Source: Tepidisphaera sp.
Lineage (GTDB): Bacteria > Planctomycetota > Phycisphaerae > Phycisphaerales > UBA1924
Length of the DNA: 64,000 nt
Direction: 5' to 3'
Assembly: GCA_050916045.1 (NCBI GenBank)
Contig: CP051526.1
Span: 192,001-256,000 of the forward strand
Position numbers and translations under genes: made by a program. Under the pieces are notes generated by a model, which saw only the letters and a program-made list of their open reading frames with translations, searched no databases and was not told where the DNA came from. Of the stretch, positions 1,657 through 30,654 are shown in pieces. Each line of letters begins with the position of its first letter. Position 1 is the first letter of the stretch.

Positions 1657-1851
1657 GTGGTCCTGTCCCGGGAAGGTTCCCCGTCCCTGCGGTGCATGCG
1701 TCGGGCTGCGGGGAGGCTTTGCGGGCGATTGTCGGCGGTCTTTGCGTCGCACGGCTCACGTGCGAGCGTCGTCTTTCTACCTGCCGCTTGCGGCGGGGAA
1801 GCTAATTCAAGTTCAGAGATCCTGTTGCACCATGCTCGGAGCGACCTTCGA

Positions 1852-12402: not shown

Positions 12403-12445
12403 AGGATGGAATCAGGGAGGGGCGGGGAGCAACAAGGAGCAGGCT

Positions 12446-14441: not shown

Positions 14442-14645
14442 ACCGCGAGAGGGAGGATGCGCGCCCGAAATCCGGATTTGCGTCTATCTCAAGCGGAGAG
14501 TCGGGCGGCGGGGGCCGCGAGTCTGAGGAAAGAGAGAGCCTCAGGGGGTGGGGGAGGGCCTCGGGAGCGTTCCCGGGCGCAGAGGTATGGGTTGGCGGTG
14601 GGACGATGCGGACAAGCCGCGTCGACATTGAAGGAGCGGTGGTCC

Positions 14646-15287: not shown

Positions 15288-16100
15288 ATGAAAGCCGCAG
15301 AGTTTCTCAAGCAGGGTCGGCTCGCCGACGCTCTCAAAGCGGCCGAGGATGCCGTTCGCAATGAGCCCGCCGCGGGCAAGCCGCGCGTGCTCCTTGCACA
15401 GATCCTCGCCGTCATGGGCGTCTGGGATCGGTGCGTCGCTCAGCTTGAGGTCGCCGGCAAGCTCGAGCCCGGCAACCTGCTGATGGTGCAGGTCTGCCGT
15501 CATCTGGTCGCCGGTGAGGGGTTCCGCCGTGACGTCTTTGCCGGCAAACGCCAGCCGCTCCTGCTTGGCGAGCCTCCGGCGTGGGCCGCGATGATGGTTC
15601 AGGCCCTCGGCCAGACCGCCGCGGGCCACCACGCCGCCGCCGCTTCCCTCCGCCAGCAAGCTCTTGAGCTCGCGCCCGCCCGGGGCGGCACCCTGAACGG
15701 TCAGCGGTTCGAGTGGATCGCGGACGCGGATAGCCGGCTTGGCCCCATTCTTGAAGTGATGGTCGACGCCAAGTACTACTGGGTGCCGATGTCGCGTCTC
15801 GCGTCCCTCAAGGTCGATCAGCCGGCCGATCTTCGCGACGTCGTCTGGGCGCCGGCCACGTTCACGTGGACCACGGGCGGGACGCAGGAGGGGTTCATCC
15901 CCGCGCGATACGCCGGGACGGAGAACGCCGGGTCGGACGTTCACAAGCTCGCGCGGCAGACGCAGTGGGACAGCCTCGAGGGCACGGAGGAGTTCGCGGG
16001 GATCGGTCAGCGCATGCTCGCGACCGATGAAGGCGAGACCCCGATTCTCGAGGTTCGCTCGCTCGTCTTTGATCCCGAGGGGAGCGTGGCGAATGGGTGA
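15288..16100 (+). CDS. tagJ: T6SS accessory protein TagJ (ImpE/SciE)
   Basis: FEWIADADSRLGPILE, YYWVP, DLRDVVW, FIPARY, GIGQR motifs. Confidence 0.93.
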   Translation: MKAAEFLKQGRLADALKAAEDAVRNEPAAGKPRVLLAQILAVMGVWDRCVAQLEVAGKLEPGNLLMVQVCRHLVAGEGFRRDVFAGKRQPLLLGEPPAWAAMMVQALGQTAAGHHAAAASLRQQALELAPARGGTLNGQRFEWIADADSRLGPILEVMVDAKYYWVPMSRLASLKVDQPADLRDVVWAPATFTWTTGGTQEGFIPARYAGTENAGSDVHKLARQTQWDSLEGTEEFAGIGQRMLATDEGETPILEVRSLVFDPEGSVANG

Positions 16101-16596
16101 ACTCACACCCAGTGAGAAGCTGCAGCCCTCGCTGCTGGACCGGCTCACGGACGAAGAGCGCTCATCGCGTGTGGAAAGCCGCGACAAGCGTGTGATGTCG
16201 ATGAAGCAGCTTCGGTCGGCGGTGCTCCGCGATCTTTCGTCGCTTCTCAACACGAGCGCCGCGCCCGCGAAGGATCCGATCTACGAGTTCCCGCTTGCGA
16301 GCGTCTCGGTCGTGAACTACGGCCTGCCCGACGCGACCGGCATGAGCTCTTCGGGCCTGAGCCTGGGAGAGATGGAGTCGCGGATGCGCCGGGCCATCGA
16401 GCGGTTTGAGCCCAGGATCGTGACGCGGACGCTTCAGGTGCGGGCGGATCTGCACGAAGGCTCGCAGCGTTCGCCGTCCTTGATCTCTTTCGAGATCTCC
16501 GGGGAGTTCTGTCCGCTCCCCGTTCCCGAAGCGTTGTATGTGAAGACCGAGATGGATCTGGAAACCGGGAGCTTTGACGTGAGCGCCAACGGCTGA
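16093..16596 (+). CDS. tssE: T6SS baseplate subunit TssE
   Basis: LQPSLLDRLTD, VLRDLSSLLNT, SVVNYGLPD, IERFEPR motifs; ATG 16093 overlaps the tagJ end. Confidence 0.95.
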   Translation: MGELTPSEKLQPSLLDRLTDEERSSRVESRDKRVMSMKQLRSAVLRDLSSLLNTSAAPAKDPIYEFPLASVSVVNYGLPDATGMSSSGLSLGEMESRMRRAIERFEPRIVTRTLQVRADLHEGSQRSPSLISFEISGEFCPLPVPEALYVKTEMDLETGSFDVSANG

Positions 16597-16617
16597 CGTT
16601 GCCAAGGCAGTCGTGAT

Positions 16618-16660
16618 TGGAAGTTTGGCTGGAAGTTTGGCTGGAAGTTCGGCTGGAGGA
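16618..16660 (+). repeat. 12-bp tandem repeat (3 copies plus a partial) in the tssF leader
   Basis: TGGAAGTTTGGC TGGAAGTTTGGC TGGAAGTTCGGC TGGAGGA; the last partial unit contains the tssF Shine-Dalgarno. Confidence 0.85.
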
Positions 16661-16663
16661 TCG

Positions 16664-18574
16664 ATGGATCGGCGTCTGCTGCAGTACTACGAGCGTGAAC
16701 TTCACCACGTGCGGGGCACGGCGGGAGAGTTCGCCCGCGAGTTTCCCAAGGTCGCAGGCCGTCTGGCGCTGGATGAGTTCGCGTGCGCCGACCCGTACGT
16801 CGAGCGTCTTCTCGAGGGTTTCGCGTTTCTCGCCGCCCGCGTGCAACTGAAGATCGACGCGGAGTTTCCCCGGTTCACGCAGGGCCTTCTCGAAACGGTC
16901 TTCCCGCACTACCTCGCGCCCATCCCCTCGATGGCGGTGGTGCAGTTCCAGCCGGACATGTCCGAAGCCGGCCTCGCCCAAGGCATCCGCGTCCCGCGGG
17001 GCACGGTGCTTCGCGGGGTGCACGCGCAGGGCACGGGCGACCGCACGCAGTGCGAGTATCGGACGGCGCACGAGCTTCGGCTTTATCCGATCCGCGTGAA
17101 GGACGCGAGGTACTTCGCTCGCGACATGGGCGTGCTCGAGGTGCCCCCCGCGGCGATGACAGGCCGCGACGCGGCGAAATCCGCGATCCGGGTCACGCTC
17201 GAGTCATCCTCGGCCGTTCCATTCGGCAAGATGGACCTCGACGCGCTGACGTTCTTCCTCCGCGGCGAGGGAGCACATCCGCAGCGGCTTCTCGAAAAGC
17301 TCCTGGGTCACTGCCGGGGCGTTCTGGTTCGAGCGGCGTCAGCGAGCACCCGTGAGCGGAGCGAAACGTCGTGGACGATGATCGAGCCCGAGCGTCTCCG
17401 CCGCGTGGGCTTTGAGGAGCGGCAGGCTCTTCTGCCCTTCGACGCCCGCAGCTTTCAAGGCTATCGGCTGCTCGCGGAGTACTTCGCGTTCCCGCAGCGG
17501 TTCCAGTTCCTGGATGTCGGCGATCTGCGTCGGGCCGTCGCGGGGGTGAAGAGCAACCAGCTCGAGCTCGTCTTCCTTCTCGACGATGACGACATCGAGC
17601 TTGAGGGAGCGGTCGAGCCCACGAACTTCGAGCTTCATTGCACTCCCGCGGTCAACCTGTTCCCCAAGCGTGCCGACCGCATCCTCATCACGCAGAAGTC
17701 AAGCGAGTTTCACGTCATCGTCGACCGGACGCGTCCGACCGACTTTGAGGTCTATGGCATCACGAGCGTCACCGGGTTCGGCTCGCGCACCGGCGAGGAA
17801 ACGATCTTCAGGCCGCTCTTTTCCGTCAGCTCCGAGGATGACCAAGGTGCGAGCGGCGCCGCGTACTACATCGCGAGCCGCGTCCCCCGAGTGCTTAGCG
17901 CCCGCGAGCGCGAACGCGGCGCCCGCTCGAGCTACGCCGGCAGCGAGGTCTCCCTGTCGATCGTCGATGGCAACGCGGTGCCCTACAGCGTCGATCTCAA
18001 GCAGCTTGGCGTGGAGGTGATGTGCACCAACCGCGACCTGCCGCTTCAGATGCCCCTGGGCAAGGGGCGGACCGACTTCACGCTCGAGATCGGCCTGCCG
18101 GTCACGGCGACGCGGGTGGTCGCGGGCCCGACGCGTCCGCGTGCGAGCGTGGCCGAGGGAGAGACGGCGTGGCGGCTCATCAGCCACCAGTCGCTGAACT
18201 ACCTGTCGCTTCTGGACACCGACGAGCGCGGCGGGGCGGCGGCCCTTCGCGATCTGCTCGCGCTGTACGCCGACCAGACCGACACCGTGCTTCGCAAGCA
18301 GGTCGACGGGGTGCGGAGCGTGGTCGCCAAGCCGGTGATGCGTCGGGTGCCGACGCCGGGGCCGATCAGCTTTGCCCGCGGGCTTGAGGTCACGGTGACG
18401 CTTGAGGAACGCGGGTTTGAAGGGACGGGCGTGTTCGTCTTCGGAGCCGTGCTGGAGCAGTTCCTGGCGCGGTACGTGGGGATCAACAGCTTCACGGAGA
18501 TGGTGGTTCGGACGGTGGAACGCGGAGAGGTGATGCGATGGCCGGTCAGGATCGGTCGACGCCCGACGGTGTGA
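16664..18574 (+). CDS. tssF: T6SS baseplate subunit TssF
   Basis: YYERELH, DPYVERLLEGFAFL, GYRLLAEYFAFP, CTPAVNLF, CTNRDLP, INSFT motifs; ATG 16664 after GGAGG. Confidence 0.97.
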   Translation: MDRRLLQYYERELHHVRGTAGEFAREFPKVAGRLALDEFACADPYVERLLEGFAFLAARVQLKIDAEFPRFTQGLLETVFPHYLAPIPSMAVVQFQPDMSEAGLAQGIRVPRGTVLRGVHAQGTGDRTQCEYRTAHELRLYPIRVKDARYFARDMGVLEVPPAAMTGRDAAKSAIRVTLESSSAVPFGKMDLDALTFFLRGEGAHPQRLLEKLLGHCRGVLVRAASASTRERSETSWTMIEPERLRRVGFEERQALLPFDARSFQGYRLLAEYFAFPQRFQFLDVGDLRRAVAGVKSNQLELVFLLDDDDIELEGAVEPTNFELHCTPAVNLFPKRADRILITQKSSEFHVIVDRTRPTDFEVYGITSVTGFGSRTGEETIFRPLFSVSSEDDQGASGAAYYIASRVPRVLSARERERGARSSYAGSEVSLSIVDGNAVPYSVDLKQLGVEVMCTNRDLPLQMPLGKGRTDFTLEIGLPVTATRVVAGPTRPRASVAEGETAWRLISHQSLNYLSLLDTDERGGAAALRDLLALYADQTDTVLRKQVDGVRSVVAKPVMRRVPTPGPISFARGLEVTVTLEERGFEGTGVFVFGAVLEQFLARYVGINSFTEMVVRTVERGEVMRWPVRIGRRPTV

Positions 18575-19725
18575 AGGGCGCGGCTTCCAAGTCGGATGAT
18601 CTGTCGTCGCTCATGGAAAAGAGCGGGGAGTCGTCGCGCGACCATGAGATCGACCACCACAAGCGTGCCCGGGCTCAGGCCGAGGGCGACCTTCTCGACC
18701 TGCTCAGGCGCGTGGGGGAGACGCCGTGGGAGTTTGATTTTTTCGAACTGATGCGCCGCGTGGAGGCGCTCGCGGCCGTGGCGCAGGGCGCGCCGGGGCT
18801 TGGCAGGTCGTCCCGTTCGCGTGAGGATCCGGTCCGATTCGGGCAGGATCCGTCCCTCGCGTTCGCACCACGGGCGATCTCGAGCGCCAAGACGAGAGCG
18901 GGCATCACGCGGGTCGCGGTGAACTTCATGGGGCTGCTGGGGCCTCAGGGCCCGATGCCGCTCCACTTCGCGGATTACGTCCGGTCCCGCGAGCTTCATC
19001 ATCAGGATCCGACCTGGGCGAGGTTTCTGGACGTCTTCAACAACCGGATGGTCGCGCTGTTGTACCGCGCGTGGGCGATGAACCGCCCGATGGTCTCCCG
19101 GGATGCGACCGCCAACGGGCAGATCGATCGTGACCGGTTCGCCGCGTATGTCGGCAGCTTTTTCGGTCTCGGAACGCCCAGCGTGTGGAACCGCGACGCG
19201 GTCGCCGATGACGCCAAGCGTTTCTTCGCCGGCCGGCTTGCGAACCAGACGCGGAGCCCCGAAGCTCTGGCTTCGATTTTGCGAGAGTTCTTCGGCGCGC
19301 CGGTCGAGATCGAGGAGTTCGTCGGCCGCTGGAGCGAGCTTCCCGAACAGTACCTGACTCGGCTTGGCCGCAAGGGCGTCTCGACCATCGCGTGCGGCTC
19401 CGGCGGGCGAGCGGCCGGCACGGCGATCCTCGGCGGACGCGTCTGGGAGTGTCAGAGCACGGTGCGGATCACCATCGGACCGCTGCCGTGGAAAGCCTAC
19501 GAACAGATTCTCCCGGGGAGCAAGGGGTACGAGCAACTGGTCTCGTGGATCTCGATGTTCGGCGGGATCGAACTCGGCTGGGAGGTCGTGCTGGTGCTCG
19601 ACCGGCGCGAGGTGCCGCTCCCGCGGCTCGGCGGCGGTGGCGGCGTGAGGCTCGGTTACAGTGCGTGGATGTCCAGGACCAAGCCGGAGCAGGACCCGGC
19701 GGATGTAGTGCTCCGCAGCCGCTAA
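18538..19725 (+). CDS. tssG: T6SS baseplate subunit TssG
   Basis: VRFGQDPSLAF, FMGLLGPQGPMPL, FLDVFNNRM..LLYRAW, IEEFVGRW motifs; 37-nt overlap with tssF. Confidence 0.95.
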   Translation: MAGQDRSTPDGVKGAASKSDDLSSLMEKSGESSRDHEIDHHKRARAQAEGDLLDLLRRVGETPWEFDFFELMRRVEALAAVAQGAPGLGRSSRSREDPVRFGQDPSLAFAPRAISSAKTRAGITRVAVNFMGLLGPQGPMPLHFADYVRSRELHHQDPTWARFLDVFNNRMVALLYRAWAMNRPMVSRDATANGQIDRDRFAAYVGSFFGLGTPSVWNRDAVADDAKRFFAGRLANQTRSPEALASILREFFGAPVEIEEFVGRWSELPEQYLTRLGRKGVSTIACGSGGRAAGTAILGGRVWECQSTVRITIGPLPWKAYEQILPGSKGYEQLVSWISMFGGIELGWEVVLVLDRREVPLPRLGGGGGVRLGYSAWMSRTKPEQDPADVVLRSR

Positions 19726-19752: not shown

Positions 19753-22467
19753 ATGGGTGATATCAGCAGAACGGCGCTCTTCGGCAAACTCAACAACCTC
19801 GGGTACAAAGCTCTCGAAGGCTCGACCGTCTTCGCCAAGCTCCGCGGCAATCCGTACGTCGAACTCACGCACTGGCTCCACCAGATCGTGCAGAACCAGG
19901 ACAGCGATCTGCATCGCATCGTCCGCCGGTTCGAGATCAATCCGAGCAAGCTCGCGGCGGACATGCAGACGGCGCTCGATCGGATGGCTCGCGGCTCGGA
20001 CGGCATCCGCGACATCTCGATGACGCTCCAGGACAGCGTCGAGAAGGGCTGGCTCTACGCTTCGCTCCAGTTCCGCGAGTTCCAGGTGCGAACGGGCCAC
20101 GTGATCTACGCGTGCCGCAAGACGCCCGAGCTTGAGAAAGCCCTCTTTGCCGTCAGCCGCGAGTTCGAGAAGTTCAACGCCGACGTCTTCGCCAAGGACT
20201 ATCTCAAGATCGTCGGCGAATCCCCCGAGCATGGCATGTCGGCGAGCGATGGCACCGGCGTCGGGGCCGGCGCGGGTGGCGGACCGGGCGAAGCAAGCGG
20301 CGCGATGGCTCCCGCCGTCATGGGCAAACAGGAAGCCCTCGAGAAGTACACCAAGGACCTCACCGAAGCCGCTCGCAAGGGCGAGATCGACCCCATCGTC
20401 GGCCGCGACGATGAGATTCGCCAGTGCGTCGACATCCTCATGCGCCGCCGCCAGAACAATCCGATCCTCGTCGGTGAGCCCGGCGTTGGCAAGACCGCGG
20501 TGGTGGAGGGGTTCGCGGGCCGCATCGCACGTGGCGACGTTCCGCCTGCGCTCAAGGATGTCTCCGTCCGCGAGCTTCGCATGTCCGACCTTCAGGCCGG
20601 CGCGAGCATGAAAGGCGAGTTCGAGAATCGCCTCAAGCAGGTCATCGAGGAGGTCCAGCAGAGCCCCAAGCCGATCATCCTCTTCATCGACGAAGCCCAC
20701 ACGCTCATCGGCGCCGGCGGTGCCGCCGGCCAGAACGATGCCGCCAACCTTCTCAAGCCCGCCCTTGCCCGAGGCACGCTCCGAACCATCGCGGCGACCA
20801 CCTGGGCCGAGTACAAGAAGTACTTCGAGAAGGACGCTGCGCTCACCCGCCGATTCCAGACCGTCAAGGTCGATGAGCCCGACGAGAAGAAAGCCATCCT
20901 CATGATGCGCGGCGTCACCGGCATGTTCGAGAAGCACCATCGCGTGCACATCCTCGATGAAGCCCTCGAATCCGCCGTCAAGCTCAGCTACCGGTATATC
21001 CCCGCCCGCCAGCTTCCCGACAAGAGCGTCAGCCTGATCGACACCGCCGCCGCCCGCGTCGCCGTCAGCCAGCACGCCGTCCCCGCCGAGCTCGACGACT
21101 GCATCAAGCGGATCGAAAGCCTCGAGGTCGAGCAGTCCATCATCGAGAAGGAAGCCGTCATCGGCCTCGAACACGGCGAACGCAAAGCCGAGATCGACGC
21201 CGAACTCGTCAAGGAACGCCAACGCCGCGCCGATCTCGACGAACGTTGGAAGAAAGAGAAGGCTCTCGTCCAATCCATCATCGCCGCTCAGAAGAAGCTC
21301 AAGGGTGAGGATGCTCTCCAAGCCGCGGGCCAACTCGCGCCCGGAGCCGAGAAAGCCGCTCCGCTCACCGATGCCGAACGTGCCACGCTTGTCGCCGAGC
21401 TCGCCAAGCTCAAGGGCGAACTTACCACGCTGCAGGGCGAAAGTCCGTTGATCCTGCCGAACGTCGACGCGCAGGCGATCGCCGCCGTCGTCGCGGACTG
21501 GACCGGCGTCCCCGTTGGCAAGATGGTCAAGGACGAGATGCAGTCGGTGATGAAGCTCGCGGACACGCTCAGCGAGCGCGTGATCGGCCAGCGCCACGGC
21601 CTTGAGACCATCGCGAACACGATCCGCCTCAGCCGCACCGGCCTCAACAACCCCACACGGCCCATCGGCGTGTTCATGCTGGTCGGGACGAGCGGCGTCG
21701 GAAAGACCGAGACCGCGCTCGCCCTCGCCGACACGCTTTACGGCGGTGAGGACAACCTCATCACGATCAACATGAGCGAGTTCCAGGAAGCCCACACAGT
21801 CTCGACGCTCAAGGGCGCCCCCCCCGGGTACGTCGGGTACGGCGAGGGCGGCGTGCTGACCGAAGCCGTGCGCCGCCGGCCCTACTCGGTCGTCCTGCTC
21901 GACGAAGTCGAGAAAGCCCACCCCGACGTCCATGAGATCTTCTTCCAGGTCTTCGACAAGGGCATCATGGAGGACGGCGAGGGCCGCGTGATCGACTTCA
22001 AGAACACGATCATCCTCCTCACCAGCAACGCCGGCAGCGACCTGCTGATGAGCATGTGCAAGGACCCGACCCTCATGCCGTCGGTCGAGGGCCTGCAGAA
22101 AGCGATGCGCGAGCCGTTGCTCAAGGTCTTCCCCGCCGCACTTCTCGGACGTCTGGTCGTCGTTCCCTACTACCCCATCTCCGACGAGATGCTGACCGCG
22201 ATCATCAAACTCCAGCTCCGCAAGATCCAGAAACGCGTCGCGACCAACCACAAAGCCGAGCTCACCTACTCCGACGAGGTCGTCCGCCTCGTCGCCGAAC
22301 GCTGCACCGAGGTCGAAAGCGGAGCCCGCGCGGTCGACGCGATCCTCACCCAGAAAATGCTCCCGGAGATGAGCCGCGAGTTCCTCAACCGCATGATCGA
22401 AGGCCGGGCGATCAGCAAGGTGCGGATCGGGGTCAAGGATTCGGAGTTCGTGTACTCCTTCGACTGA
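19753..22467 (+). CDS. tssH: T6SS ATPase ClpV (TssH)
   Basis: RRRQNNPILVGEPGVGKT, IDEAH, GTSGVGKTE, GYVGYGEGGVLTEAVRR; ClpV-type N-terminus YVELTHWL. Confidence 0.97.
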   Translation: MGDISRTALFGKLNNLGYKALEGSTVFAKLRGNPYVELTHWLHQIVQNQDSDLHRIVRRFEINPSKLAADMQTALDRMARGSDGIRDISMTLQDSVEKGWLYASLQFREFQVRTGHVIYACRKTPELEKALFAVSREFEKFNADVFAKDYLKIVGESPEHGMSASDGTGVGAGAGGGPGEASGAMAPAVMGKQEALEKYTKDLTEAARKGEIDPIVGRDDEIRQCVDILMRRRQNNPILVGEPGVGKTAVVEGFAGRIARGDVPPALKDVSVRELRMSDLQAGASMKGEFENRLKQVIEEVQQSPKPIILFIDEAHTLIGAGGAAGQNDAANLLKPALARGTLRTIAATTWAEYKKYFEKDAALTRRFQTVKVDEPDEKKAILMMRGVTGMFEKHHRVHILDEALESAVKLSYRYIPARQLPDKSVSLIDTAAARVAVSQHAVPAELDDCIKRIESLEVEQSIIEKEAVIGLEHGERKAEIDAELVKERQRRADLDERWKKEKALVQSIIAAQKKLKGEDALQAAGQLAPGAEKAAPLTDAERATLVAELAKLKGELTTLQGESPLILPNVDAQAIAAVVADWTGVPVGKMVKDEMQSVMKLADTLSERVIGQRHGLETIANTIRLSRTGLNNPTRPIGVFMLVGTSGVGKTETALALADTLYGGEDNLITINMSEFQEAHTVSTLKGAPPGYVGYGEGGVLTEAVRRRPYSVVLLDEVEKAHPDVHEIFFQVFDKGIMEDGEGRVIDFKNTIILLTSNAGSDLLMSMCKDPTLMPSVEGLQKAMREPLLKVFPAALLGRLVVVPYYPISDEMLTAIIKLQLRKIQKRVATNHKAELTYSDEVVRLVAERCTEVESGARAVDAILTQKMLPEMSREFLNRMIEGRAISKVRIGVKDSEFVYSFD

Positions 22468-22618: not shown

Positions 22619-24688
22619 ATGCCACGAACGCAAGCGAATCGATTTGTGGCCATCAAGACGGCGCTGGACGCCGATGTGCTTCTCATCCGGTCCATGTCCG
22701 TCACGGAGGAGCTTGGCAAGCCCTTCGAGATCACCGCGGAGCTTCTCAGCGAGGACCGCCAGATCGACTTCAACCTCGTCATCGCCAAGCCCTGTGCGAT
22801 CCGGATGGAACTCGGCAATGGACAGACGCGCTATTTCCACGGCATCGTCGCGGAGTTCAGCCAGGGCGGGCTTGTGGGTGAACTTGCGTCATACCGCGCG
22901 GTGATCGTCCCCTGGACCTGGCTTCTCACCAAGACCTCGCATTGCCGCACGTTCCAGGAGATCAAGCGGCCCGATGTCGTCCAGAACGTCCTCAAGGAAC
23001 AGGGCTCGGACATTGAGCTTCGCCTCTCGGAGACGTACGAGAAGTCCGAGTTCATCGTCCAGTATCGCGAGACGAACCACAACTTCGTCAGTCGCCTCCT
23101 TGAGCACGAGGGCATCAGCTACTTCTTCACCCACACCGACACCAAGCACACGATCGTCCTCGCCGACAGCCCCGCCGCGTACGAGCCTTTCGAGGGGTAT
23201 GAGAAGATCCGCTTCTCTTCGGAGGGATTCGATCGCGCCGATGAGCAGCAGGGCATCCGCACGCTCAGCATCAAGCAGGTCGTCACTCCGGCTCGTGTGA
23301 CTCTCAAGGACTTTGACCCCTTGGTGCCGAAGAAGGATCTGACCAAGCGGCGCGAGAAGGGTTGGGACCAAACCGCCGTCGGCGAGATCTTCGACTTTCC
23401 GGGCGAGTACACGGTCGCCAGCGAGGGCGAAGCGGTTGCACAGCGGCGGCTTCAGGAACTCCAGACCGCCCGCCATGTCATCTCCGGTACCGGCAACGCC
23501 CGGGGCATCGCGGTCGGACACACGTTCGAGATCGAAGCTCCGCCGCGTGAGGATCTCGCGGGCAAGAAATGGCTCGTCACCAACGCCAGCTACGAGATCA
23601 TCGTCGACGACTACGGGGCCGCCAAGGGCGGGTCCGGCGGCGCCTCCTTCTCAGTCTCGTTCTCTGCGATCGAGTCCTCTGTGCCTTTCAGGCCCGAACG
23701 CGTCACGCCAAGCCCGATCATCTCCGGACCTCAAACCGCGATCGTCGTCGGACGAAACGGCGAAGAGATTACCACCGATGAGCACGGTCGCGTCAAGGTG
23801 CTCTTCCATTGGGACCGGTTCGCCTCGGGCGACGAAAACTCTTCGTGCTGGGTCCGTGTTTCCCAAGCCTGGGCCGGGAAGTCCTGGGGTGCGATGTTCC
23901 TGCCGAGGCACGGTCACGAAGTGATCGTCGAGTTTATCGAGGGCGACCCCGACCGCCCGATCATCACCGGGCGGGTCTACAACGGGGACAACGCGCCGCC
24001 CTGGGAGTTGCCAGCAAAGAAGGAGATTTCCGGCTTCTTCTCCAACTCGAGCAAGGGCGGCGAAGGCGCGAACAAGATTCTCATTGACGATACGAAAGGG
24101 GCCGAACGCCTCGGACTTCGTGCTGAAAAGGACATGATGATCCAGGTGCTCAACAACAGGCACGCTGGCATCGCGGAGTACGACGACCTGACTGCCAAGA
24201 ACGTGCGATGGCTGATCAAAGACACACTTCAGTTCGAGATCAACAAGGACGAGGTTCGTCTGATCCACGGAGAGTGCGGGTTCGCGATCGACAAAGACTA
24301 CAAGGGCTGGGTCGACGGCAAGCAATCCATGACGGTCAAAGGCGACGTCGCGATCAAGAGTGAGAAGAACCACGCGATCGAGGTCGCCGAGCAGTTTCAC
24401 GTGAAAGCCAAGGAGATCATTCTCGAAGCCTCCGCCAACCTCACCATCAAGGTTGGCTCGACCACCATCGCCATCGAGCCCGGAGGCGTCGCCATCGACG
24501 CCAAGGGCGATGTCACCGTCAAGACTTCCGGGAACTGCAAGGTGGAAGCAACCCAGAACGTCGAAGTCAAAGGCACAGCCGCGTTCAAGGCCGAGGGCGC
24601 CGAGGCTTCCGTCAAGGGCACCGGCAAAGCGTCGCTCGAAGCGTCCGGCCAGACCGTCGTCAAGGGCGGCATGGTGATGATCAACTAG
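22619..24688 (+). CDS. vgrG: T6SS spike protein VgrG (TssI)
   Basis: VQYRETNHNFVSRLLEHEGI, GPQTAIVVG, GRVKVLFHW, WVRVSQAWAG, GDPDRP; gp5-like C-terminal repeats; no effector extension. Confidence 0.97.
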   Translation: MPRTQANRFVAIKTALDADVLLIRSMSVTEELGKPFEITAELLSEDRQIDFNLVIAKPCAIRMELGNGQTRYFHGIVAEFSQGGLVGELASYRAVIVPWTWLLTKTSHCRTFQEIKRPDVVQNVLKEQGSDIELRLSETYEKSEFIVQYRETNHNFVSRLLEHEGISYFFTHTDTKHTIVLADSPAAYEPFEGYEKIRFSSEGFDRADEQQGIRTLSIKQVVTPARVTLKDFDPLVPKKDLTKRREKGWDQTAVGEIFDFPGEYTVASEGEAVAQRRLQELQTARHVISGTGNARGIAVGHTFEIEAPPREDLAGKKWLVTNASYEIIVDDYGAAKGGSGGASFSVSFSAIESSVPFRPERVTPSPIISGPQTAIVVGRNGEEITTDEHGRVKVLFHWDRFASGDENSSCWVRVSQAWAGKSWGAMFLPRHGHEVIVEFIEGDPDRPIITGRVYNGDNAPPWELPAKKEISGFFSNSSKGGEGANKILIDDTKGAERLGLRAEKDMMIQVLNNRHAGIAEYDDLTAKNVRWLIKDTLQFEINKDEVRLIHGECGFAIDKDYKGWVDGKQSMTVKGDVAIKSEKNHAIEVAEQFHVKAKEIILEASANLTIKVGSTTIAIEPGGVAIDAKGDVTVKTSGNCKVEATQNVEVKGTAAFKAEGAEASVKGTGKASLEASGQTVVKGGMVMIN

Positions 24689-24710: not shown

Positions 24711-26039
24711 ATGGGAGCAAGCCCACGATCAGGAAAGGGAGCCTCGCCCGACGCGCCGGCCGCTCCCGCTGCGCCAGAGGAGCGCGAGCTTGACGGCTCC
24801 GGCGAGGTCTCCGAAGCCGCCGCAAACCCCGCTACGCTCGAAACCGGCGAGGTCGGCGCGGAAACCGTCGAGCCCCTTCCCCCGCCGGAAGAACCCGCCG
24901 CCGAGGAAGAGCCGCCCATCCCCACGCTCACCGTGCGGTGGAGCAAAGCCCGCGTCCCCCCGGTCTACAACAAGAACTTCCGCCCCACGACTCCGCCCAC
25001 CGACGAGATCCCCGATGAGTGCAAGGTCGAGATGATCGCGGACACCACCGACGTCCCCGACGGAACGACCGCATCCATCCAGGTCTATCAGTGCTGGTTC
25101 GACTACTCCGTCCCGGGCGCCTCGTTCCCCGACCTTGAGGTCCGCGGCGGCCGCGTCATCGACCCCGCCACCGGTGAGCGGCCCATCATGACCTTCACCC
25201 ACGACAACTACATCTACCAGCCGTGGGACAAAGATGTCTACTACTTCCGCTGCAACGTCGACTTTGAAGGCTTGGAAGCCGACACCCCCAGCGACGCCGA
25301 CACCCAGGAAGCCCAGTGCCTCCGCGTCATGTGGTTCCACATGTGCGCGGCCGACTCGATCGCGGACACGCCCGCCGGCGGCGGACTCACCACCAACGCC
25401 GAAGCCAACGAGATCAAGGGCATTATGGATGCCAAGCAGCACCATAAAGCCGCCAAGCACGCGTTCAACGCCCGAAACCCCCCGACCAACATCTGGGGCT
25501 CCTGGATCCGCAACACCTACTGCTACCACCACGCCAGCCACGGCGACATCGTCGACCGCACCACCGGTGCACAGCTCAACGCCGGCGCCGCCAACCCGCC
25601 CCGCAATCGCGTCGGTAACTGGCGAAGCGTCATCATCATCGGCAGCAAAGCCATCGGCGACGCCGAAGTCAGCGACACCGATGCTTGCCCCAGCGTGCCC
25701 AAGTACCTTGCATACCTCGACACCTGCGTCGCGGGCTGGGAGCCGAGCTTCGCCCACGCGTGGATCTCGCGCGGCACCCAGAACGTCATCGCGTTCCGGA
25801 TGTACATCCCCGACGGCGACGCCCGCGCGATGGCCCGAAGGTTCCACCGCAAGTGGATCGGCACGCACAACGGCGACCCGTCCAAGATCAACGAGACGTT
25901 CTTCGAGATCGGGTCGCGGTACTACTGGACGATGCGGCCCGTGCTCTTCGGGATGAACGGCGGCGAGATCATCCGCGGCGGCAAAGACCCCAACGTGCTT
26001 GCCGGCGCCATCGCCGAGGAACTGGGAGTCGACTGGTGA
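24711..26039 (+). CDS. Putative VgrG cargo effector with a C-terminal caspase-like (CHAT/clan CD) cysteine protease domain
   Basis: 22 nt after vgrG with GGGAG. YHHASHG (His277) and YLAYLDTC (Cys339), then FAHAWISRGTQNVIAF...IPDGDARAMARRFH, follow the CHAT layout. Confidence 0.65.
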   Translation: MGASPRSGKGASPDAPAAPAAPEERELDGSGEVSEAAANPATLETGEVGAETVEPLPPPEEPAAEEEPPIPTLTVRWSKARVPPVYNKNFRPTTPPTDEIPDECKVEMIADTTDVPDGTTASIQVYQCWFDYSVPGASFPDLEVRGGRVIDPATGERPIMTFTHDNYIYQPWDKDVYYFRCNVDFEGLEADTPSDADTQEAQCLRVMWFHMCAADSIADTPAGGGLTTNAEANEIKGIMDAKQHHKAAKHAFNARNPPTNIWGSWIRNTYCYHHASHGDIVDRTTGAQLNAGAANPPRNRVGNWRSVIIIGSKAIGDAEVSDTDACPSVPKYLAYLDTCVAGWEPSFAHAWISRGTQNVIAFRMYIPDGDARAMARRFHRKWIGTHNGDPSKINETFFEIGSRYYWTMRPVLFGMNGGEIIRGGKDPNVLAGAIAEELGVDW

Positions 26040-26518
26040 ACCACGATCTGATCAACGACCTCGAACTCCGCGGCAAAGCCGAGGCCGACTGCCGCGAAGC
26101 CGCCGCTCGCGTCTCGCCGAGCGAGTGCCGCGTCGACGTCGCCCTCGCCGCGACCGAGTGGGACCCCGACGACATGCGGTTCATCTTCGAGTTCGAAGCC
26201 AACCTCTGGCTCGCAGGCCCCGCTTTCGACGTCATCATCGACGACCTCGGACGCACCGTCGGCTACATCGACGAGAGCAAGTGGCGAGCGTGCTCGTGGA
26301 AGCCGCTGACCCGCGCTCGCGCCACCGAGATCGCCTCCGAGTCCGGATACGTCAGCAAAGCCGCCGCGATCATAGGGTTCGGCAAGGGCGAGAAGGGATG
26401 CCTCGAGGCACGGTTCCTCACCGACGCCCGCGACCCCGCTTCCAAGCGATACGTCGCCCGCATCAACCCCGTCCTAGAGAAGCTTATCTCGATCATGCCC
26501 GAGGAGGTCGAGCTGTGA
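26036..26518 (+). CDS. Hypothetical protein with PepSY-like motifs (candidate immunity/inhibitor)
   Basis: GTG overlaps the effector stop (GTGA). LTRARATEIA...YVARINPVLEKLISI resembles the PepSY helix and terminal hairpin. Confidence 0.55.
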   Translation: MNHDLINDLELRGKAEADCREAAARVSPSECRVDVALAATEWDPDDMRFIFEFEANLWLAGPAFDVIIDDLGRTVGYIDESKWRACSWKPLTRARATEIASESGYVSKAAAIIGFGKGEKGCLEARFLTDARDPASKRYVARINPVLEKLISIMPEEVEL

Positions 26519-26814
26519 CACCACGCGAAGCATCATCCATCGCCGAAGCCAAGCGGCCCGCCCACGGCGTACCGCCCGCGGCCGAAGCCTGCCCGCCCGA
26601 GCAGCGCTGGATCGAGCTCGACTCCCGAGACAAGGACGGTCACCGCCTCGTTCGCGATGCGCTGGTCTGGGTGGTGCGGTTCGTGCTCCCCGGGGCCTGG
26701 ATCGATCTTCTGATCGCCGACAGCGGTGGCGCTGTCGTCCGCGTCGACAAGTCGCGCGGCTACGTCCTCACCTACGACCGCCCCGCCGACGATCAGCAGG
26801 AGGTCGCCCCATGA
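26515..26814 (+). CDS. Small PepSY-like protein (candidate immunity/inhibitor)
   Basis: GAGGAGG then GTG overlapping the previous stop; MTPREASSIAE...LVWVVRF...WIDLLIADSGGAVV. Confidence 0.55.
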   Translation: MTPREASSIAEAKRPAHGVPPAAEACPPEQRWIELDSRDKDGHRLVRDALVWVVRFVLPGAWIDLLIADSGGAVVRVDKSRGYVLTYDRPADDQQEVAP

Positions 26815-27341
26815 CCGCTCCCATCCCACCCGAATTCCAAGCCGCCAGCGGGACGATGTACGACACCTTCGCCCGCGACATGCGAGCACGCGGCATGCCC
26901 GAAGCCGTCCCGTTCCTGAAGGACAAGCTCGCACCGCGCCACGAGAGCACCCTGCCCGCAGGCCCCGGCTATCGCGTCGTCAAGATGAAGGTCTTCAGCA
27001 GGTTCACCTCGTACTCGGCCACATACAACGCCCGCACCGGCGAACAGACCTCGATGATGATGGGCGCCCTCATGAAGGACCCGGGCGAAGAGCTCACCCG
27101 CGATGAAGCCGTCGAAGCAGCGTCCGCCCTGCTCAAGCCGCCCGGCGACGCCCTCCTCGATGTCGCCGAGTATGACCAGGCCGCCGGCGAACCCTTCTTC
27201 ATCGTCCGCTGGTCGCATAAGCATCAGGGCGTGGTCGTCGAGCGCGACTACATCCAGGCTCTCTTCAACGGAAAGAGCAAGCGTATTTTCTCGTGGTCGC
27301 GCCGCTGGCACTCCGTCCGCACCGAGGAGGCTCCGCGATGA
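26811..27341 (+). CDS. PepSY/peptidase-propeptide-like protein (YcdB/YcdC-like repeats)
   Basis: AGGAGG; ATGA overlap; TYNARTGE, LTRDEAVEAA, FIVRWSHKHQGVVVERDYIQALFNGKSKRIFSW. Confidence 0.6.
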   Translation: MTAPIPPEFQAASGTMYDTFARDMRARGMPEAVPFLKDKLAPRHESTLPAGPGYRVVKMKVFSRFTSYSATYNARTGEQTSMMMGALMKDPGEELTRDEAVEAASALLKPPGDALLDVAEYDQAAGEPFFIVRWSHKHQGVVVERDYIQALFNGKSKRIFSWSRRWHSVRTEEAPR

Positions 27342-27841
27342 ATCCGCTCGGGTCGTGCTCGCTTGCCGTCGCGTGCCTCGTGCTCGCCGGTTGCGGCGCG
27401 AACCAACCCGCACCCGCCGCGCCGGAACCCACCCCGGCGCCCGTTGTCACCAAACCCGCCGGCACGGAGGCCGTTATGCCGCTTGCGACCATCGATCCTT
27501 CCATTCTCGAACAAGCCAAGGACGAAGGCGGCTTCGTCGCGATCGTCCGCGTCACCTCGTCCAAGATCGAGAACGCCGGCACCCGGAGCGAAGCCGCTCG
27601 CATCGAAGCCGAGGTGCTCCGCTCCATCCACGGCACGCTTGCCGGAAAGATCTCGCTCCGTTCCTACACCAAGGGCGGCGATCCCGTCCTCAAGCCCGGC
27701 ACCGTGCACGCCGTCGCTCTCTTCACCGATCCCAGGTTCGCTCCGGCAATGGACCTCATCGGCCACGCGCCCTGCGACGAAGCTCGCGTCGAAGAATCCG
27801 CCCAGGCACACACGAAGCTGCTCAAGGGAACACCCCGTTGA
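27338..27841 (+). CDS. Lipoprotein of unknown function (possible NTR/TIMP-like OB fold)
   Basis: GAGGAGG; ATGA overlap; lipobox LAGC; Pro-rich linker; FVAIVRV...AEVLRSIHG...LKPGTVHAVAL. Confidence 0.6.
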   Translation: MNPLGSCSLAVACLVLAGCGANQPAPAAPEPTPAPVVTKPAGTEAVMPLATIDPSILEQAKDEGGFVAIVRVTSSKIENAGTRSEAARIEAEVLRSIHGTLAGKISLRSYTKGGDPVLKPGTVHAVALFTDPRFAPAMDLIGHAPCDEARVEESAQAHTKLLKGTPR

Positions 27842-27875: not shown

Positions 27876-28169
27876 ATGCCAAACGCAGCCTGTGTCGGAG
27901 ACATGCACACCTGCCCGTTGTTCAACGGCCCGGTGCCGCACGTGGGCGGACCGATCCTGCCTCCCGGCACGCCGAACGTCATCATCGGCGGACGTCCTGC
28001 GGCCGTCGCGACCGGGATGTGCGTCTGCGTCGGCCCACCCGACACGATCGCCAAGGGATCCGCGACGGTGATGATCGGCGGCAAGCCCGCCGCCCGCGTC
28101 GGCGACCTGACCGCGCATGGCGGGAGCATCGTGGGCCCCGGGGCGCCCACGGTCATGATTGGCGGGTGA
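27876..28169 (+). CDS. PAAR-domain spike tip protein
   Basis: MPNAACVGDMHTCP...GRPAA...GKPAARVGDLTAHGG; GGAG before ATG 27876. Confidence 0.95.
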   Translation: MPNAACVGDMHTCPLFNGPVPHVGGPILPPGTPNVIIGGRPAAVATGMCVCVGPPDTIAKGSATVMIGGKPAARVGDLTAHGGSIVGPGAPTVMIGG

Positions 28170-28179
28170 GTTGAGCCAT

Positions 28180-28830
28180 CTATCGCCAGTCCGTTGGCCG
28201 GACAATCTCTCTGCCATCCGCGTCCTTGACTTTGTCAGGCATCTGGCTTTGGTTGAACTTGGCTCGACCAATCGTCATGCTCCCCGAGCACGCAGTCGCC
28301 AGCTCACCAGAATGACGCTTCGGCGGAAAGAGCACTGAGACGACCTTGCGCGGGAATCTCTGCCGCACCATCCGAACCGCGCCCACAAGATCAGTGTCAG
28401 CGGAAACAAGGAGGGCGACATCGAATCGATCGTCGATGGCGTCGACCAGCAGGTCGATTGCGATGTTCACGTCTGTCATTTTCTCGACCGGGAGCCATAC
28501 CTCGTGATTGCAGGTACGGCAGAGCCTTGGCCGCTCCTGTAGCATTCCGAAGGTAATCCTGAGGTCGGGCAACGTCTGAAGGGCGTCAAGATACGCGGAC
28601 TGACGAAGAACTTTGTCCGCAGGTTTCTTGAGTCGAGATGTGTAGTAGTTCGTGCGAAGGAGCGATTGCCCAGGCCTAAGGAGATTCCGGACCAGTCGAG
28701 GCAGATCGAGCCATTAGAAGCGTTGCCAACCGCTGTCCTTAAGCCCGTTGTACAGGTTAAAGCCGTCGATGTAGGCGATAACCCGTTGCGGACCACCAGT
28801 TTGTGAACGTATTGAATCGGCTTGGTCGAT
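28180..28830 (-). pseudogene. NYN (PIN-fold, LabA/DUF88-like) ribonuclease interrupted by an in-frame TAA
   Basis: Manual translation: RVIAYIDGFNLYNGLKDSGWQRF*WLDL...YYTSR...EKMTDVNIAIDLLVDA...LLVSADTDLVG. Stop at 28714-28716. GAGGAG lies 8 nt before an ATC at 28830; no in-frame ATG/GTG/TTG upstream of the NYN motif. Confidence 0.8.
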
Positions 28831-28978: not shown

Positions 28979-30169
28979 CTACTGCAGGTTGACCGGCATC
29001 ACGACGTACACGAAGTCCTGCCCGCTGCGGATCAGGCCCGGCTTGTTCCCCGCTTTGAGCTCGAGGATCACTTCCGACTCCGTCACGACCTTGAGCGCGT
29101 CGGTGATGAACGTCGGGTTGAACCCGATCTCAAGGTCATCCCCGTCGTACTTCGCGAGATCGACGGTGATCTGGGCCTCGCCCATCTCCGGAGCCCGGCT
29201 CGAAAGCTCGAGCTGCTGGTTCTTCCCGGTGAAGTGAAGCCGCACGCCGCGCGATTCCTCGTTCGTCAGGAGCGCCGCACGCCGGACCGCCGACGCCAGC
29301 ACGTCCTTGTCGAACGTCACCTTCTTATCGTGGTCCTTGGGGATCACGTCTTCGTACGGAGGGAAGCTGCCCTCGACCAGATTGCTCGAAAGCGTCGCGC
29401 GGCCCGCTGCCGGGTCTTTCTCGCCCGCCGCGAGCACGCTGAAAAAGATCTGGTTGTCCGTGATCGCGATCTGCACCTGCTCCTCAGGGCTTGAGATCAG
29501 CCGCTGGATCATCTGCAGCGCCTTCGTAGGCACGATGCACGAGACGGCTTTGGTGTCCTTGTCAGAGGCCGAAAGCTGCGTACGGCAGAGCGCCAGACGA
29601 CGACCATCCGTCGCCACCATCTCAAGCCGCTTGCCGTCGCGCTTCATCAGCACTCCGTTGATCGCGTACCGGCTGTTCTCGCGGGCGGTCGCGAAGACCG
29701 TCCGCGTGATGATGCCGTCGAGTGCCGACGCCGAGTGGGCGAAGACCGCTTTGGCTTTGGGAATCTCGGGCGTGCCCGCGATGACCGAAGCCATGTCCGG
29801 GATCGGAGGAAAGTCCGCCGCCGGATACCCGTAGACCTTGAAGTGGGCGTCGCGGCCGCGGATGTGCATCGCGTCTTCTTCGGACTCGAGCGTCAGCGTC
29901 GGCTCGCTGTCCTCGGCCCCGATGATCTGGCGGAGCTTGTCCGCCGGAATCAGAGCCTCGCCCGGCTGCTGAACGTCCACCTGAAGCAGCTTCAGCCGCA
30001 TCGAAAGCTCACCGTCGGTCGCGAGCAGCGTCAGCTCGCCCGTCGAGCCCTTCTTGGTGGCTTCCAGCTTGACGCACTGCAACTGAACGCGCGGCGTGCG
30101 CCCCGCCACCGCACCCGAGACCAGGTTGATGCCGTCAAGCAACGCGGACCGATCGCAAATCACCTTCAT
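28979..30169 (-). CDS. dnaN: DNA polymerase III beta sliding clamp
   Basis: MKVICDRSALL, LLATDGE, TVFATARENSRYAINGVL, VATDGRRLA, IGFNP, YVVMPV; GGAG before ATG 30169. Confidence 0.97.
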   Translation of the reverse strand: MKVICDRSALLDGINLVSGAVAGRTPRVQLQCVKLEATKKGSTGELTLLATDGELSMRLKLLQVDVQQPGEALIPADKLRQIIGAEDSEPTLTLESEEDAMHIRGRDAHFKVYGYPAADFPPIPDMASVIAGTPEIPKAKAVFAHSASALDGIITRTVFATARENSRYAINGVLMKRDGKRLEMVATDGRRLALCRTQLSASDKDTKAVSCIVPTKALQMIQRLISSPEEQVQIAITDNQIFFSVLAAGEKDPAAGRATLSSNLVEGSFPPYEDVIPKDHDKKVTFDKDVLASAVRRAALLTNEESRGVRLHFTGKNQQLELSSRAPEMGEAQITVDLAKYDGDDLEIGFNPTFITDALKVVTESEVILELKAGNKPGLIRSGQDFVYVVMPVNLQ

Positions 30170-30441
30170 GGCAGCTCCAAACGCGGTGCCCATCCCATCC
30201 AAAAGCAGCAAAGACCGAAACACACCCCGCCCACGCTCATCAAGATCGAGGGTATGCCGAGATTGTACTAGGAATAGGGTCGCCGGTGCCTCGACGCCAC
30301 GACGCGTTGTGGATCTTCTTTGCCCGCGACCTGTGAACAACCCGTCGGTTCGCTCGGCTTGGTCCCGCATGCTCGTCCAGCCGCAAGAGCCGCGGGGAGC
30401 CCCGCCGGAACCCAAGTTCGGCCAGTCGGTCCTAAGTTTGC

Positions 30442-30457
30442 AGCAATTCTCATGCCA
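30442..30457 (-). promoter_or_regulatory. Putative sigma54 (-24/-12) promoter facing dnaN
   Basis: Minus strand TGGCATG-AGAA-TTGCT versus consensus TGGCACG-N4-TTGCW. Confidence 0.5.
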
Positions 30458-30654
30458 ATCGCAGACCGGGGTTGCTTCGGTTCTCGGACACCCAGATACT
30501 CCTCGGTGCGCTCGCCCGGGGGTGTCCCCGTGCGGCCGCACGCCGTCCGTCTCCACCCTTCAAACGGTGGTGCGGATGTCATTTTCGTCGTCGACGGGCC
30601 ACTCGCGCCGTCGGGACCGCCTCCGACGCCCGTCCCGAGAAAGGACTCTTCCGG

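Follow-up and report, generated by a model that had tools for sequence, protein, structure and literature searches.

A predicted clan CD (caspase-fold) protease as probable type VI secretion cargo, with four co-conserved partner genes, in a Phycisphaerales-like genome

What is delivered by a type VI secretion system (T6SS) whose genome carries a single vgrG gene was asked here for Tepidisphaera sp., using a window of 64,000 nt (contig CP051526.1, positions 192,001 to 256,000 of the forward strand; 66% G+C) from a single-contig host genome of 4.08 Mb. The vgrG gene (22619-24688, plus strand, 689 amino acids (aa)) was recognised by Pfam (Phage_GPD 7.6e-87, Phage_base_V and Gp5_trimer_C) and NCBIfam (TIGR03361 8.9e-170), and it is followed, 22 nt past its stop codon, by a gene of 442 codons at 24711-26039 (+), whose product we call the effector. 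An earlier reading of this DNA, made from the letters and open reading frames (ORFs) only (the sequence-only reading), had placed this gene directly after vgrG, and had proposed for it a caspase-like protease delivered by the T6SS, belonging to an effector class not recognised as characterised, or else an enzyme processing another product of the locus such as TpsA. The analysis reported below indicates that the effector is probably a T6SS-delivered protease toxin dependent on a His-Cys dyad. It forms a distinct, unmodelled clan CD family linked to VgrG and PAAR as cargo, and comes with a fixed set of four partner genes with conserved terminal Arg residues.

The effector ORF is a real gene. Its translation is free of stops over all 442 aa, and its G+C content at third codon positions (GC3) ranges from 0.81 to 0.99, against 0.42 to 0.75 in the remaining two frames; the high-GC3 frame changes four more times downstream, each time exactly at a gene junction. 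An alignment of 35 family members (A1) served as input for AlphaFold2, and a second set held 30 more divergent sequences (A6). The resulting model (predicted local distance difference test score, pLDDT, 86.1; predicted template modelling score 0.80; 300 residues at pLDDT 90 or above) divides the protein into three parts. The N-terminal linker (aa 1-70; 24711-24920, +) is acidic, rich in Pro and Ala (16 Asp plus Glu, three Lys plus Arg and 13 Pro) and apparently disordered, pLDDT falling below 50 at residues 1-15 and 21-53; in VgrG-fused relatives this region is the spacer between the spike and the protease domain. It is followed by an immunoglobulin (Ig)-like or macroglobulin (MG)-like beta-sandwich (aa ~72-205; 24924-25325, +), all-beta in the model with pLDDT above 90, and by a predicted clan CD protease domain (aa ~206-420) with a C-terminal helix (25326-26039, +), in which His277 (codon CAC, 25539-25541, +) and Cys339 (codon TGC, 25725-25727, +) are found. 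The acidic Pro-rich N-terminus and the beta-rich middle domain described by the sequence-only reading were both recovered, and the motifs that it quoted and its numbering of H277 and C339 agree with the translation and with A1.

Free-standing family members share a start motif, M-P-x-P-K-S-G, placed before the low-complexity linker (window 24711-24740; A1 columns ~200-210), with Gly8 in at least 90% of A1 sequences; the motif may be a docking peptide for VgrG. When the Ig-like domain was compared with known structures by VIA-align, the top match was BtaeB-NTD (9jdh_A, Z 10.6; 9jg8_C, Z 9.9), in a statistical tie with complement C3 MG domains (Z 10.0-10.1) and alpha2-macroglobulin (Z 9.8). BtaeB is a B. 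fragilis T6SS spike-cargo effector seen bound to the VgrG spike, and the likeness of the modelled domain to it is only a lead for spike loading.

A Foldseek search of the PDB with the effector model returned the SAVED-CHAT protein 8tl0 first (E 7.6e-5), followed by Craspase TPR-CHAT, separase, gingipain R, metacaspase and caspase-9, so that the top matches all belong to clan CD. Realignment of the Foldseek list by VIA-align gave Z scores of 16.6 for gingipain R (RgpB; root mean square deviation 3.2 over 174 residues), 16.4 for 8tl0_C, 15.2 for separase, 13.8 for DdvA, 13.1 for caspase-7 and 12.9 for legumain, and all 50 of the 50 rows shown were clan CD proteases or CHAT-domain proteins. The same families led when VIA-align was run without Foldseek against 48,161 chains (8tl0_A 16.0, 4ief_B 14.4, 8rot_B 14.1, separase 14.0), followed at lower scores by legumain and the peptide ligase OaAEP1 (12.5 each), clostripain (11.4) and glycosylphosphatidylinositol (GPI) transamidase (11.3). 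Taken together, the VIA-align matches between Z 16.6 and 11 cover gingipain, CHAT, separase, legumain, metacaspase, caspase (11-13), MALT1 and clostripain.

Clan CD is defined by a His, followed by Gly, and then a Cys, situated on the loops after strands beta3 and beta4 (as described in PMC4357240). Elements of the model follow one another as beta1 (208-215), alpha1, beta2, alpha2, beta3 (271-275), beta4 (333-337), alpha, beta5 (358-362), alpha and beta6 (410-415), which is the clan CD order of beta1-alpha-beta2-alpha-beta3-beta4-alpha-beta5-alpha-beta6. With H277-G278 in the loop that follows beta3 and C339 in the one behind beta4, the effector has both the His-Gly...Cys order and the loop positions of the clan CD dyad, as judged by strand order in the predicted model. 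Residues S276-H277-G278 and C339 were invariant among the 35 sequences of A1, as were H277, G278 and C339 among the 30 of A6. When 122 database relatives were placed on the family profile, 100 spanned both dyad positions, with His and Cys together in 97, and Gly278 was retained in 102 of 103. The caspase-like fold is therefore supported by structure comparison both with and without Foldseek, and by a dyad that is invariant at the topological positions of caspases. The effector is predicted to carry a clan CD (caspase-hemoglobinase) fold, nearest to CHAT, gingipain and separase but outside Pfam CHAT, in keeping with the caspase-like or CHAT-like fold and conserved H277/C339 pair foreseen from the letters.

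The family is small and without annotation. Searching 5.8 billion clustered proteins yielded 42 relatives of the effector (best E 5e-188), and an exhaustive HMMER scan of 1.84 billion representatives yielded 86 at E <=1e-3. No Pfam or NCBIfam model matched the window protein (P0001) at cut-off (NCBIfam, 0 families), and the Pfam models of C14, C25, C11, C13, C50 and C80 were absent from the 22 families matched at E <=1 by the 35 A1 members, as they were for P0001. A weak CHAT match, given by 32 of the 35 members (best E 4.5e-5), is the sole sequence-level link to a known family. The effector is treated here as an unmodelled clan CD family, missed by current Pfam and NCBIfam annotation. Three distant relatives of 1,039-1,096 aa (P0106, P0109 and P0114) showed a weak, sub-cut-off signal of a Reprolysin-like metallopeptidase (E 1.8e-4 to 3.2e-3) upstream of the C-terminal caspase-fold domain.

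Whether this protease is cargo of the T6SS was addressed by its genomic linkage. In the window, vgrG, the effector gene, four genes named gA, gB, gC and gD, and a PAAR gene follow in this order, the genes from effector to gD overlap successively by 4 nt, and GGAG-type sites precede most of the downstream gene starts; the seven genes form one translationally coupled operon, which is closed by the PAAR gene (27876-28169, +), encoding a spike-tip protein of 97 aa (PAAR_motif 1.3e-24). The vgrG gene is the sole one detected in the 4.08-Mb genome (one PF05954 match genome-wide), and the protease gene is likewise single-copy. Since no other VgrG-linked cargo was found in this Phycisphaerales-like genome, the effector probably defines what its T6SS does.

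A scan of one genome per species provided 18 related loci. In seven of them (L003, L006, L007, L008, L011, L012 and L013) the protease is fused in frame to VgrG, with no stop between, giving a specialised VgrG of ~1,050-1,090 aa, and in L001 and L002 a separate vgrG lies just upstream. The VgrG and protease parts of the Hyalangium versicolor locus (L009, 5854-9170) lie in different frames, unlike those of its relatives L006-L008; a frameshift, a split gene or an error in sequencing could account for the difference. Counting all these arrangements, the window, L001-L003, L006-L009 and L011-L013 have VgrG immediately before the protease or fused to it, while PAAR adjoins the cassette of protease and partner genes in L001, L003, L004 and L005. 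Elsewhere the protease is fused to a Tox-PAAR-like domain (L016), stands within an array of PAAR-DUF4123 effector modules (L004), lies in a T6SS cluster 4 kb after vgrG (L014) or has a DcrB/Eag-like gene upstream (L010). Database representatives include further fusions to VgrG (P0044, P0046 and P0057) and to Tox-PAAR-like domains (P0033 and P0039). All five genomes in which the cassette does not adjoin vgrG encode TssC, and the protease is the last domain in all seven VgrG fusions and in the PAAR-like fusions.

Linkage to vgrG and PAAR, fusion to delivery modules in relatives and the presence of a T6SS in carrier genomes thus strongly support, by comparative genomics, the cargo role suggested by the sequence-only reading; delivery itself we infer. 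An intracellular, defence-type CHAT protease was considered as a further candidate and rejected given the VgrG and PAAR fusions.

A small ORF of 123-164 aa was seen directly upstream of the protease where VgrG is neither fused nor preceding, often overlapping the protease start (L004 7324-7704, L014 7438-7806, L015 7149-7640 and L018 7330-7722). Its copies have motifs in common and match no Pfam family; the ORF could encode an adaptor for spike loading. Locus L004, labelled as a Flavobacteriaceae metagenome-assembled genome (MAG), carries proteobacterial-style PAAR-DUF4123 arrays that are unusual for a Bacteroidota T6SS, and its contig may be mis-binned.

The four co-conserved genes downstream of the effector had been missed by the sequence-only reading. 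All are on the plus strand: gA (26036-26518, 160 aa) has a GTG start preceded by GGAG and overlaps the effector stop by 4 nt; gB (26515-26814, 99 aa), with a 4-nt overlap and GAGGAGG upstream, has a helix-plus-sheet core; gC (26811-27341, 176 aa) has two PepSY-like domains, according to its model; and gD (27338-27841, 167 aa; ATG at 27338, GAGGAGG upstream) encodes an exported lipoprotein with the lipobox L-A-G-C (Cys19). The products of gA, gB and gC are cytoplasmic, with no signal peptide in any aligned orthologue, whereas orthologues of gD have a signal peptide or lipobox, and the protein contains an invariant Gly-Thr-Arg.

Across the 18 loci, tblastn found gA after the protease in 14, gB in 16, gC in 17 and gD in 10, almost always in the same order, and inspection added divergent gA copies in L014 and L018 and gD in L014, L015 and L018. 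Locus L010 stops right after the protease, while in L012 and L013 gD is placed inside the cassette, before gC, with two gD copies in L012. Carriers of the cassette are labelled as Planctomycetota, Verrucomicrobiota, a Flavobacteriaceae bin, Acidobacteriota, Myxococcota, Beta-, Gamma- and 'Delta'-proteobacteria, Desulfuromonadaceae and Fibrobacteria. Protease and partner genes are thus inherited together in at least eight phylum-level groups, and their shared order across phyla indicates that the five genes move as a unit. Loci with a VgrG-fused protease also retain gA-gC, whose role thus goes beyond that of loading adaptors.

Pfam returned nothing useful for gA, gB and gD. The model of gC (pLDDT 90) consists of a helical hairpin and two helix-plus-sheet domains, and its best matches were the C-terminal PepSY domains of YpeB (Foldseek E 2.3e-4, probability 1.00; VIA-align Z 7.7), followed in VIA-align by the propeptide of fungalysin (M36; 7.3), YycH (7.2), CD1622 (6.5), YpmB (6.3) and the propeptide of vibriolysin (M4; 5.2). 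DUF4901 (YcdB/YcdC repeat) matched three of 17 gC sequences, with a best E of 4e-4. The protein models as PepSY-like, and gA, judging by a profile comparison with gC (hhalign probability 76.7%, E 2.1e-5, 136 columns), appears to be its distant paralogue; the comparison of gB with gA was not significant (hhalign probability 1.2%). The last residue of gC is Arg in 16 of 17 loci and in all 22 further database homologues (38 of 39), at a fixed distance after a conserved Trp-His. In gB, the core ends in an invariant Ser-Arg (S80-R81, 16 of 16), followed immediately by the stop codon in nine of the 16 and by short variable tails otherwise. Homologues of gC formed 22 clusters, about as rare as the protease, which argues against a widespread free-standing immunity family. 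Overall, gA-gD look like inhibitors or immunity proteins of the protease, with gD as a candidate periplasmic immunity protein. Prediction of a complex between protease residues 70-442 and gC gave an ipSAE of 0.00 in two runs without controls, which bears on binding in neither direction. Atlas look-ups (TIMP/NTR 0.81 for gD; a PepSY-bearing cluster, 0.81, for gA) are weak leads and were not used as evidence.

How such a protease might work can be sketched from these features. The disordered acidic N-terminus and/or the Ig-like domain would dock the effector on the VgrG/PAAR spike, sheath contraction would inject it into a neighbouring cell, and there Cys339, activated by His277, would cleave target proteins, probably after Arg or Lys. 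Positions lining the S1 pocket are given as Arg87 (L1), Gln184 (Cys-2) and Arg233 (L5) in caspase-7, and as Asp365, Asp462 and Glu500 in the Arg-specific MALT1 (PMC4357240). Their topological counterparts in the effector are D215/D219 (following beta1), D337 (at Cys-2) and D368 (following beta5); in relatives, Asp is found at the D215 position in 79 of 96, at D219 in 75 of 90 and at D368 in 80 of 110, and the D337 position holds Asp, Asn or Ser. Acidic residues at S1-shaping positions, as in MALT1, suggest by analogy that a basic P1 residue is preferred.

The likely site of action would be the envelope or periplasm of the target cell. Nine relatives (P0031, P0032, P0036, P0038, P0043, P0053, P0089, P0118 and L017) carry OmpA-like and PG_binding_1 domains at the N-terminus, with no signal peptide in the four whose N-termini were inspected in A1, and these fusions, together with the exported lipoprotein gD in the cassette, favour the envelope; immunity to T6SS toxins that act in the periplasm usually takes the form of an exported lipoprotein. 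In the cytoplasm of the producer, gA, gB and gC would keep the protease inactive or folding-competent, like propeptides acting in trans, and the C-terminal Arg of gC and the Ser-Arg of gB may fill the S1 pocket as product or pseudosubstrate mimics. Carried to its full extent, the proposal would describe five genes that together make up a T6SS weapon. An Arg/Lys-specific caspase-fold protease would be held in check in two compartments, by gA-gC caps plugging S1 (with the gC Arg and the gB Ser-Arg) in the producer's cytoplasm and by the Thr-Arg loop of gD in the periplasm, and its targets in prey would be peptidoglycan-tethered envelope proteins. We regard this complete scheme as speculative and rather unlikely to hold in all its parts; if true, trans-acting 'propeptides' as T6SS immunity proteins or chaperones would be new, and so would be a clan CD enzyme inhibited via the product-mimic C-terminal Arg of a protein. 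Our confidence in the compartment and in the inhibitor mechanism is much lower than in the protease toxin as such.

A number of results weigh against a T6SS-delivered clan CD toxin neutralised by PepSY-like partners, or limit how far it can be taken. Membership of clan CD depends on a predicted structure: the window protein scored 13.3 bits (E 0.056) and the best member (P0053) 22.9 bits against Pfam CHAT (PF12770), below its gathering cut-off of 24 bits, and profile searches of PDB sequences with A1 and A6 found no clan CD chain, returning chance matches only (coronavirus HR1, CAPS PH domain). Three of the 100 relatives spanning the dyad positions (P0054, P0066 and P0114) lack the dyad. In the host genome (95.6% complete) PF06761, the IcmF-related TssM domain, had no match, although tssK was found; TssM may be divergent or absent, and the apparatus possibly incomplete. 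Both tblastn and inspection left gD undetected in L005, L008 and L016. The PepSY scores of gC (Z 5-7.7) are middling on the tool's own scale, though the match set is consistent, no Pfam PepSY (PF03413) match was obtained for 17 gC sequences at E <=10, and gB compared with the second half of gC was not significant (hhalign 4.4%). The idea of a basic P1 is an analogy in which the make-up of the S1 pocket is read from topology alone, and secretion, proteolysis, toxicity and immunity are all steps that we infer. Finally, as gA, gB and gC are cytoplasmic, a target in the cytoplasm would fit equally well, and the compartment stays ambiguous.

The main alternative is an antibacterial protease acting in the cytoplasm, with gA, gB and/or gC as the true immunity proteins and gD in another role, such as envelope repair or as an unrelated passenger. 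The 4-nt overlap puts gA in the classical immunity position, gA-gC are free of signal peptides throughout and are kept where a VgrG-fused protease needs no loading adaptor, and Cpe1, a known papain-like T6SS cysteine protease, acts on cytoplasmic GyrB/ParE, as described in PMC12136450 and PMC13323088. Such a reading does not, however, account for the exported lipoprotein whose gene forms part of the cassette in 13 or more of the 18 loci (in L012 and L013 it precedes gC), nor for the OmpA-like and peptidoglycan-binding domains of relatives, and three separate immunity genes per toxin domain would be unusual. We therefore give this alternative a small chance that deserves to be kept in mind.

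An effector directed at eukaryotes, for example against grazing protists, rather than at bacteria appears quite improbable. Environmental bacteria are the carriers, many clan CD proteases (gingipains and the cysteine protease domains (CPDs) of toxins) are described as acting on eukaryotic hosts (PMC3482391), and Tce2 of P. aeruginosa, another clan CD cargo of a T6SS, impairs yeast growth in a manner dependent on Cys115 and is reported to have no immunity gene nearby (PMC13323088). Four co-inherited partners, including an exported lipoprotein, are nonetheless the signature of self-protection against an antibacterial toxin, and the peptidoglycan-binding fusions point to the bacterial envelope.

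Slightly lower still we place a non-toxin accessory or self-processing enzyme, that is, a 'releasing peptidase' for itself or for other cargo, or a processor of, for instance, TpsA, as the sequence-only reading had allowed. Most caspase-like domains in polymorphic toxins are held to be releasing peptidases by Zhang et al. 2012 (PMC3482391), and the window has a TpsB/TpsA pair shortly before its T6SS genes. In all seven VgrG fusions and in the PAAR-like fusions, however, the protease is C-terminal-most with nothing behind it to release, and a C-terminal position of the caspase-like domain is taken in the same source as the mark of a toxin. The cassette also occurs as an orphan module and within a PAAR/DUF4123 effector island. 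As for TpsA, its processing finds no backing: the cassette is found elsewhere without TpsA, and no TPS domain was detected among 62 neighbouring ORFs scanned at seven loci.

A transpeptidase or ligase that rewires links between peptidoglycan and envelope proteins, after the manner of legumain-type ligases or GPI transamidase, is hardly credible: the structural matches do include legumain and OaAEP1 (Z 12.5 each) and GPI transamidase (Z 11.3), and peptidoglycan-binding fusions exist, but these matches rank below CHAT, gingipain and separase, and nothing specific speaks in favour.

With a dyad-dependent protease toxin as the preferred reading, the effector was compared with known systems. CHAT proteases (PF12770: SAVED-CHAT 8tl0, Craspase TPR-CHAT/Csx29, and DdvA 8rot/8rw5) are its best or joint-best structural matches (8tl0 Z 16.0-16.4; the anti-sigma factor DdvA 13.8-14.1; Craspase 11-12.5), and they have the same His-Gly...Cys order. 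Known CHAT proteases serve intracellular signalling or defence and are activated by a ligand or partner, whereas the effector, a putative spike cargo, lacks a sensor domain and has an Ig-like domain at its N-terminal side. Gingipain R (RgpB, MEROPS C25; 4ief, 1cvr) aligned with Z 14.2-16.6 over 171-174 residues and, like the effector, joins a bacterial clan CD protease domain to an Ig-like one; it is an aggressive enzyme and is secreted, as the effector presumably is. Differences are that the effector has no C25 Pfam match, carries its Ig-like domain at the N-terminus, would be exported by a T6SS instead of the type IX system used by gingipain, and has its putative inhibitors encoded as separate genes. 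The prodomain of RgpB places an Arg in the S1 pocket, and inhibition of gingipain R by its prodomain would be a plausible parallel to inhibition of the effector in trans by gA-gC. PepSY and FTP propeptide domains, known from thermolysin- and fungalysin-type propeptides, are protease inhibitors and folding aids; gA-gC differ from these in being cytoplasmic, free-standing and paired with a cysteine protease, not a metalloprotease. To our knowledge, the conserved C-terminal Arg of gC has no counterpart among PepSY/FTP propeptides.

Among T6SS toxins, Tce1 and Tce2 of P. aeruginosa (2026) are described as putative cysteine proteases borne by Hcp3 (H3-T6SS), with a His/Cys dyad like that of the TcdB CPD (PMC13323088). 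Tce1 (9qpe_G) aligned to the catalytic domain of the effector with Z 10.8 over 141 residues. Both are small Hcp-lumen cargo, apparently anti-eukaryotic and reportedly without neighbouring immunity genes; the effector, by contrast, is linked to VgrG/PAAR, larger, nearer to CHAT, gingipain and separase than to the C80 CPDs, and accompanied by four partner genes. 'Tox-Caspase' of Zhang et al. 2012 (PMC3482391) is a domain predicted computationally to have a caspase fold and an H, C dyad and to serve as toxin or releasing peptidase, and T6SS is listed among its delivery routes; compared by description only, its immunity partners Imm36 and Imm57 differ from the PepSY-like gA-gC and the lipoprotein gD. 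Other T6SS peptidases differ in fold and catalytic type, Cpe1 being a clan CA papain-like enzyme (PMC12136450) and VgrG2b a zinc metallopeptidase, each described with one cognate immunity protein; the C-terminal metallopeptidase of VgrG2b illustrates that a peptidase fused to VgrG can be active in the periplasm of prey (PMC6899460). CHAT-domain proteins in a variable region of the B. fragilis T6SS have been guessed to be immunity proteins (PMC11854122).

The view that the effector represents an uncharacterised class accordingly stands in part. Clan CD toxins in T6SS are already known from the accounts cited above (the 2012 prediction and Tce1/Tce2 in 2026), so that the class is not unprecedented, while the VgrG/PAAR-linked family itself was found undescribed: no open-access account was found of this family, of CHAT-, gingipain- or separase-like VgrG-linked effectors, or of gA-gD, subscription journals lying outside the search. 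Protease toxins are a small and poorly understood share of the T6SS arsenal, and those with a caspase fold have so far been either predictions (2012) or putative enzymes without known targets (Tce1/Tce2). The present family adds an unmodelled member to clan CD and offers a well-defined test case, given its sharply conserved dyad and the natural VgrG and PAAR fusions that clarify its delivery route. It occurs in bacteria that are cultivated and non-pathogenic (Piscinibacter sakaiensis 201-F6, locus L018, and Hyalangium versicolor, L009), and the fixed set of four partners yields concrete, falsifiable predictions of inhibition, for example by the C-terminal Arg of gC.

Upstream of vgrG, the T6SS genes of the window are all on the plus strand: tssA (11326-12402; ImpA_N 6.8e-30), a probable tssB without Pfam match (12406-12897), tssC (12951-14441; VipB 8.6e-137), hcp (14457-15137; T6SS_HCP 5.3e-40), tagJ/impE (15288-16100; ImpE 8.8e-44), tssE (16027-16596; GPW_gp25 2.5e-18), tssF (16613-18574; TssF 7.7e-222), tssG (18538-19725; TssG 1e-95) and clpV (19753-22467; AAA_2/ClpB_D2-small), the models named being those of Pfam. 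With tssK, which lies ~5 kb before the window start, the T6SS genes detected in the genome itself are tssA, C, E, F, G and K, hcp, clpV, vgrG and PAAR. The nearest public relative of the locus (L001) is a Phycisphaerales MAG whose protease is 96% identical; its ClpV is 99.8% identical and its VgrG (window 22619-24688 against L001 1433-3502) just 75%, and this divergence suggests that the spike gene was recombined or swapped.

Directly upstream of tssA and on the same strand as the T6SS genes are a gene for a TpsB-like protein (1657-3801, +; ShlB 1.9e-7) and one for TpsA (4035-11156, +; 2,373 aa; TPS domain 1.1e-21), which pair as a two-partner secretion system. At the other end, an NYN-domain gene (28180-28572, -; 6.7e-8) stands directly after the PAAR gene, followed by dnaN (28979-30556, -), whose listed ORF has a long N-terminal extension that is probably untranslated; these two opposite-strand genes right after PAAR mark the end of the T6SS operon.

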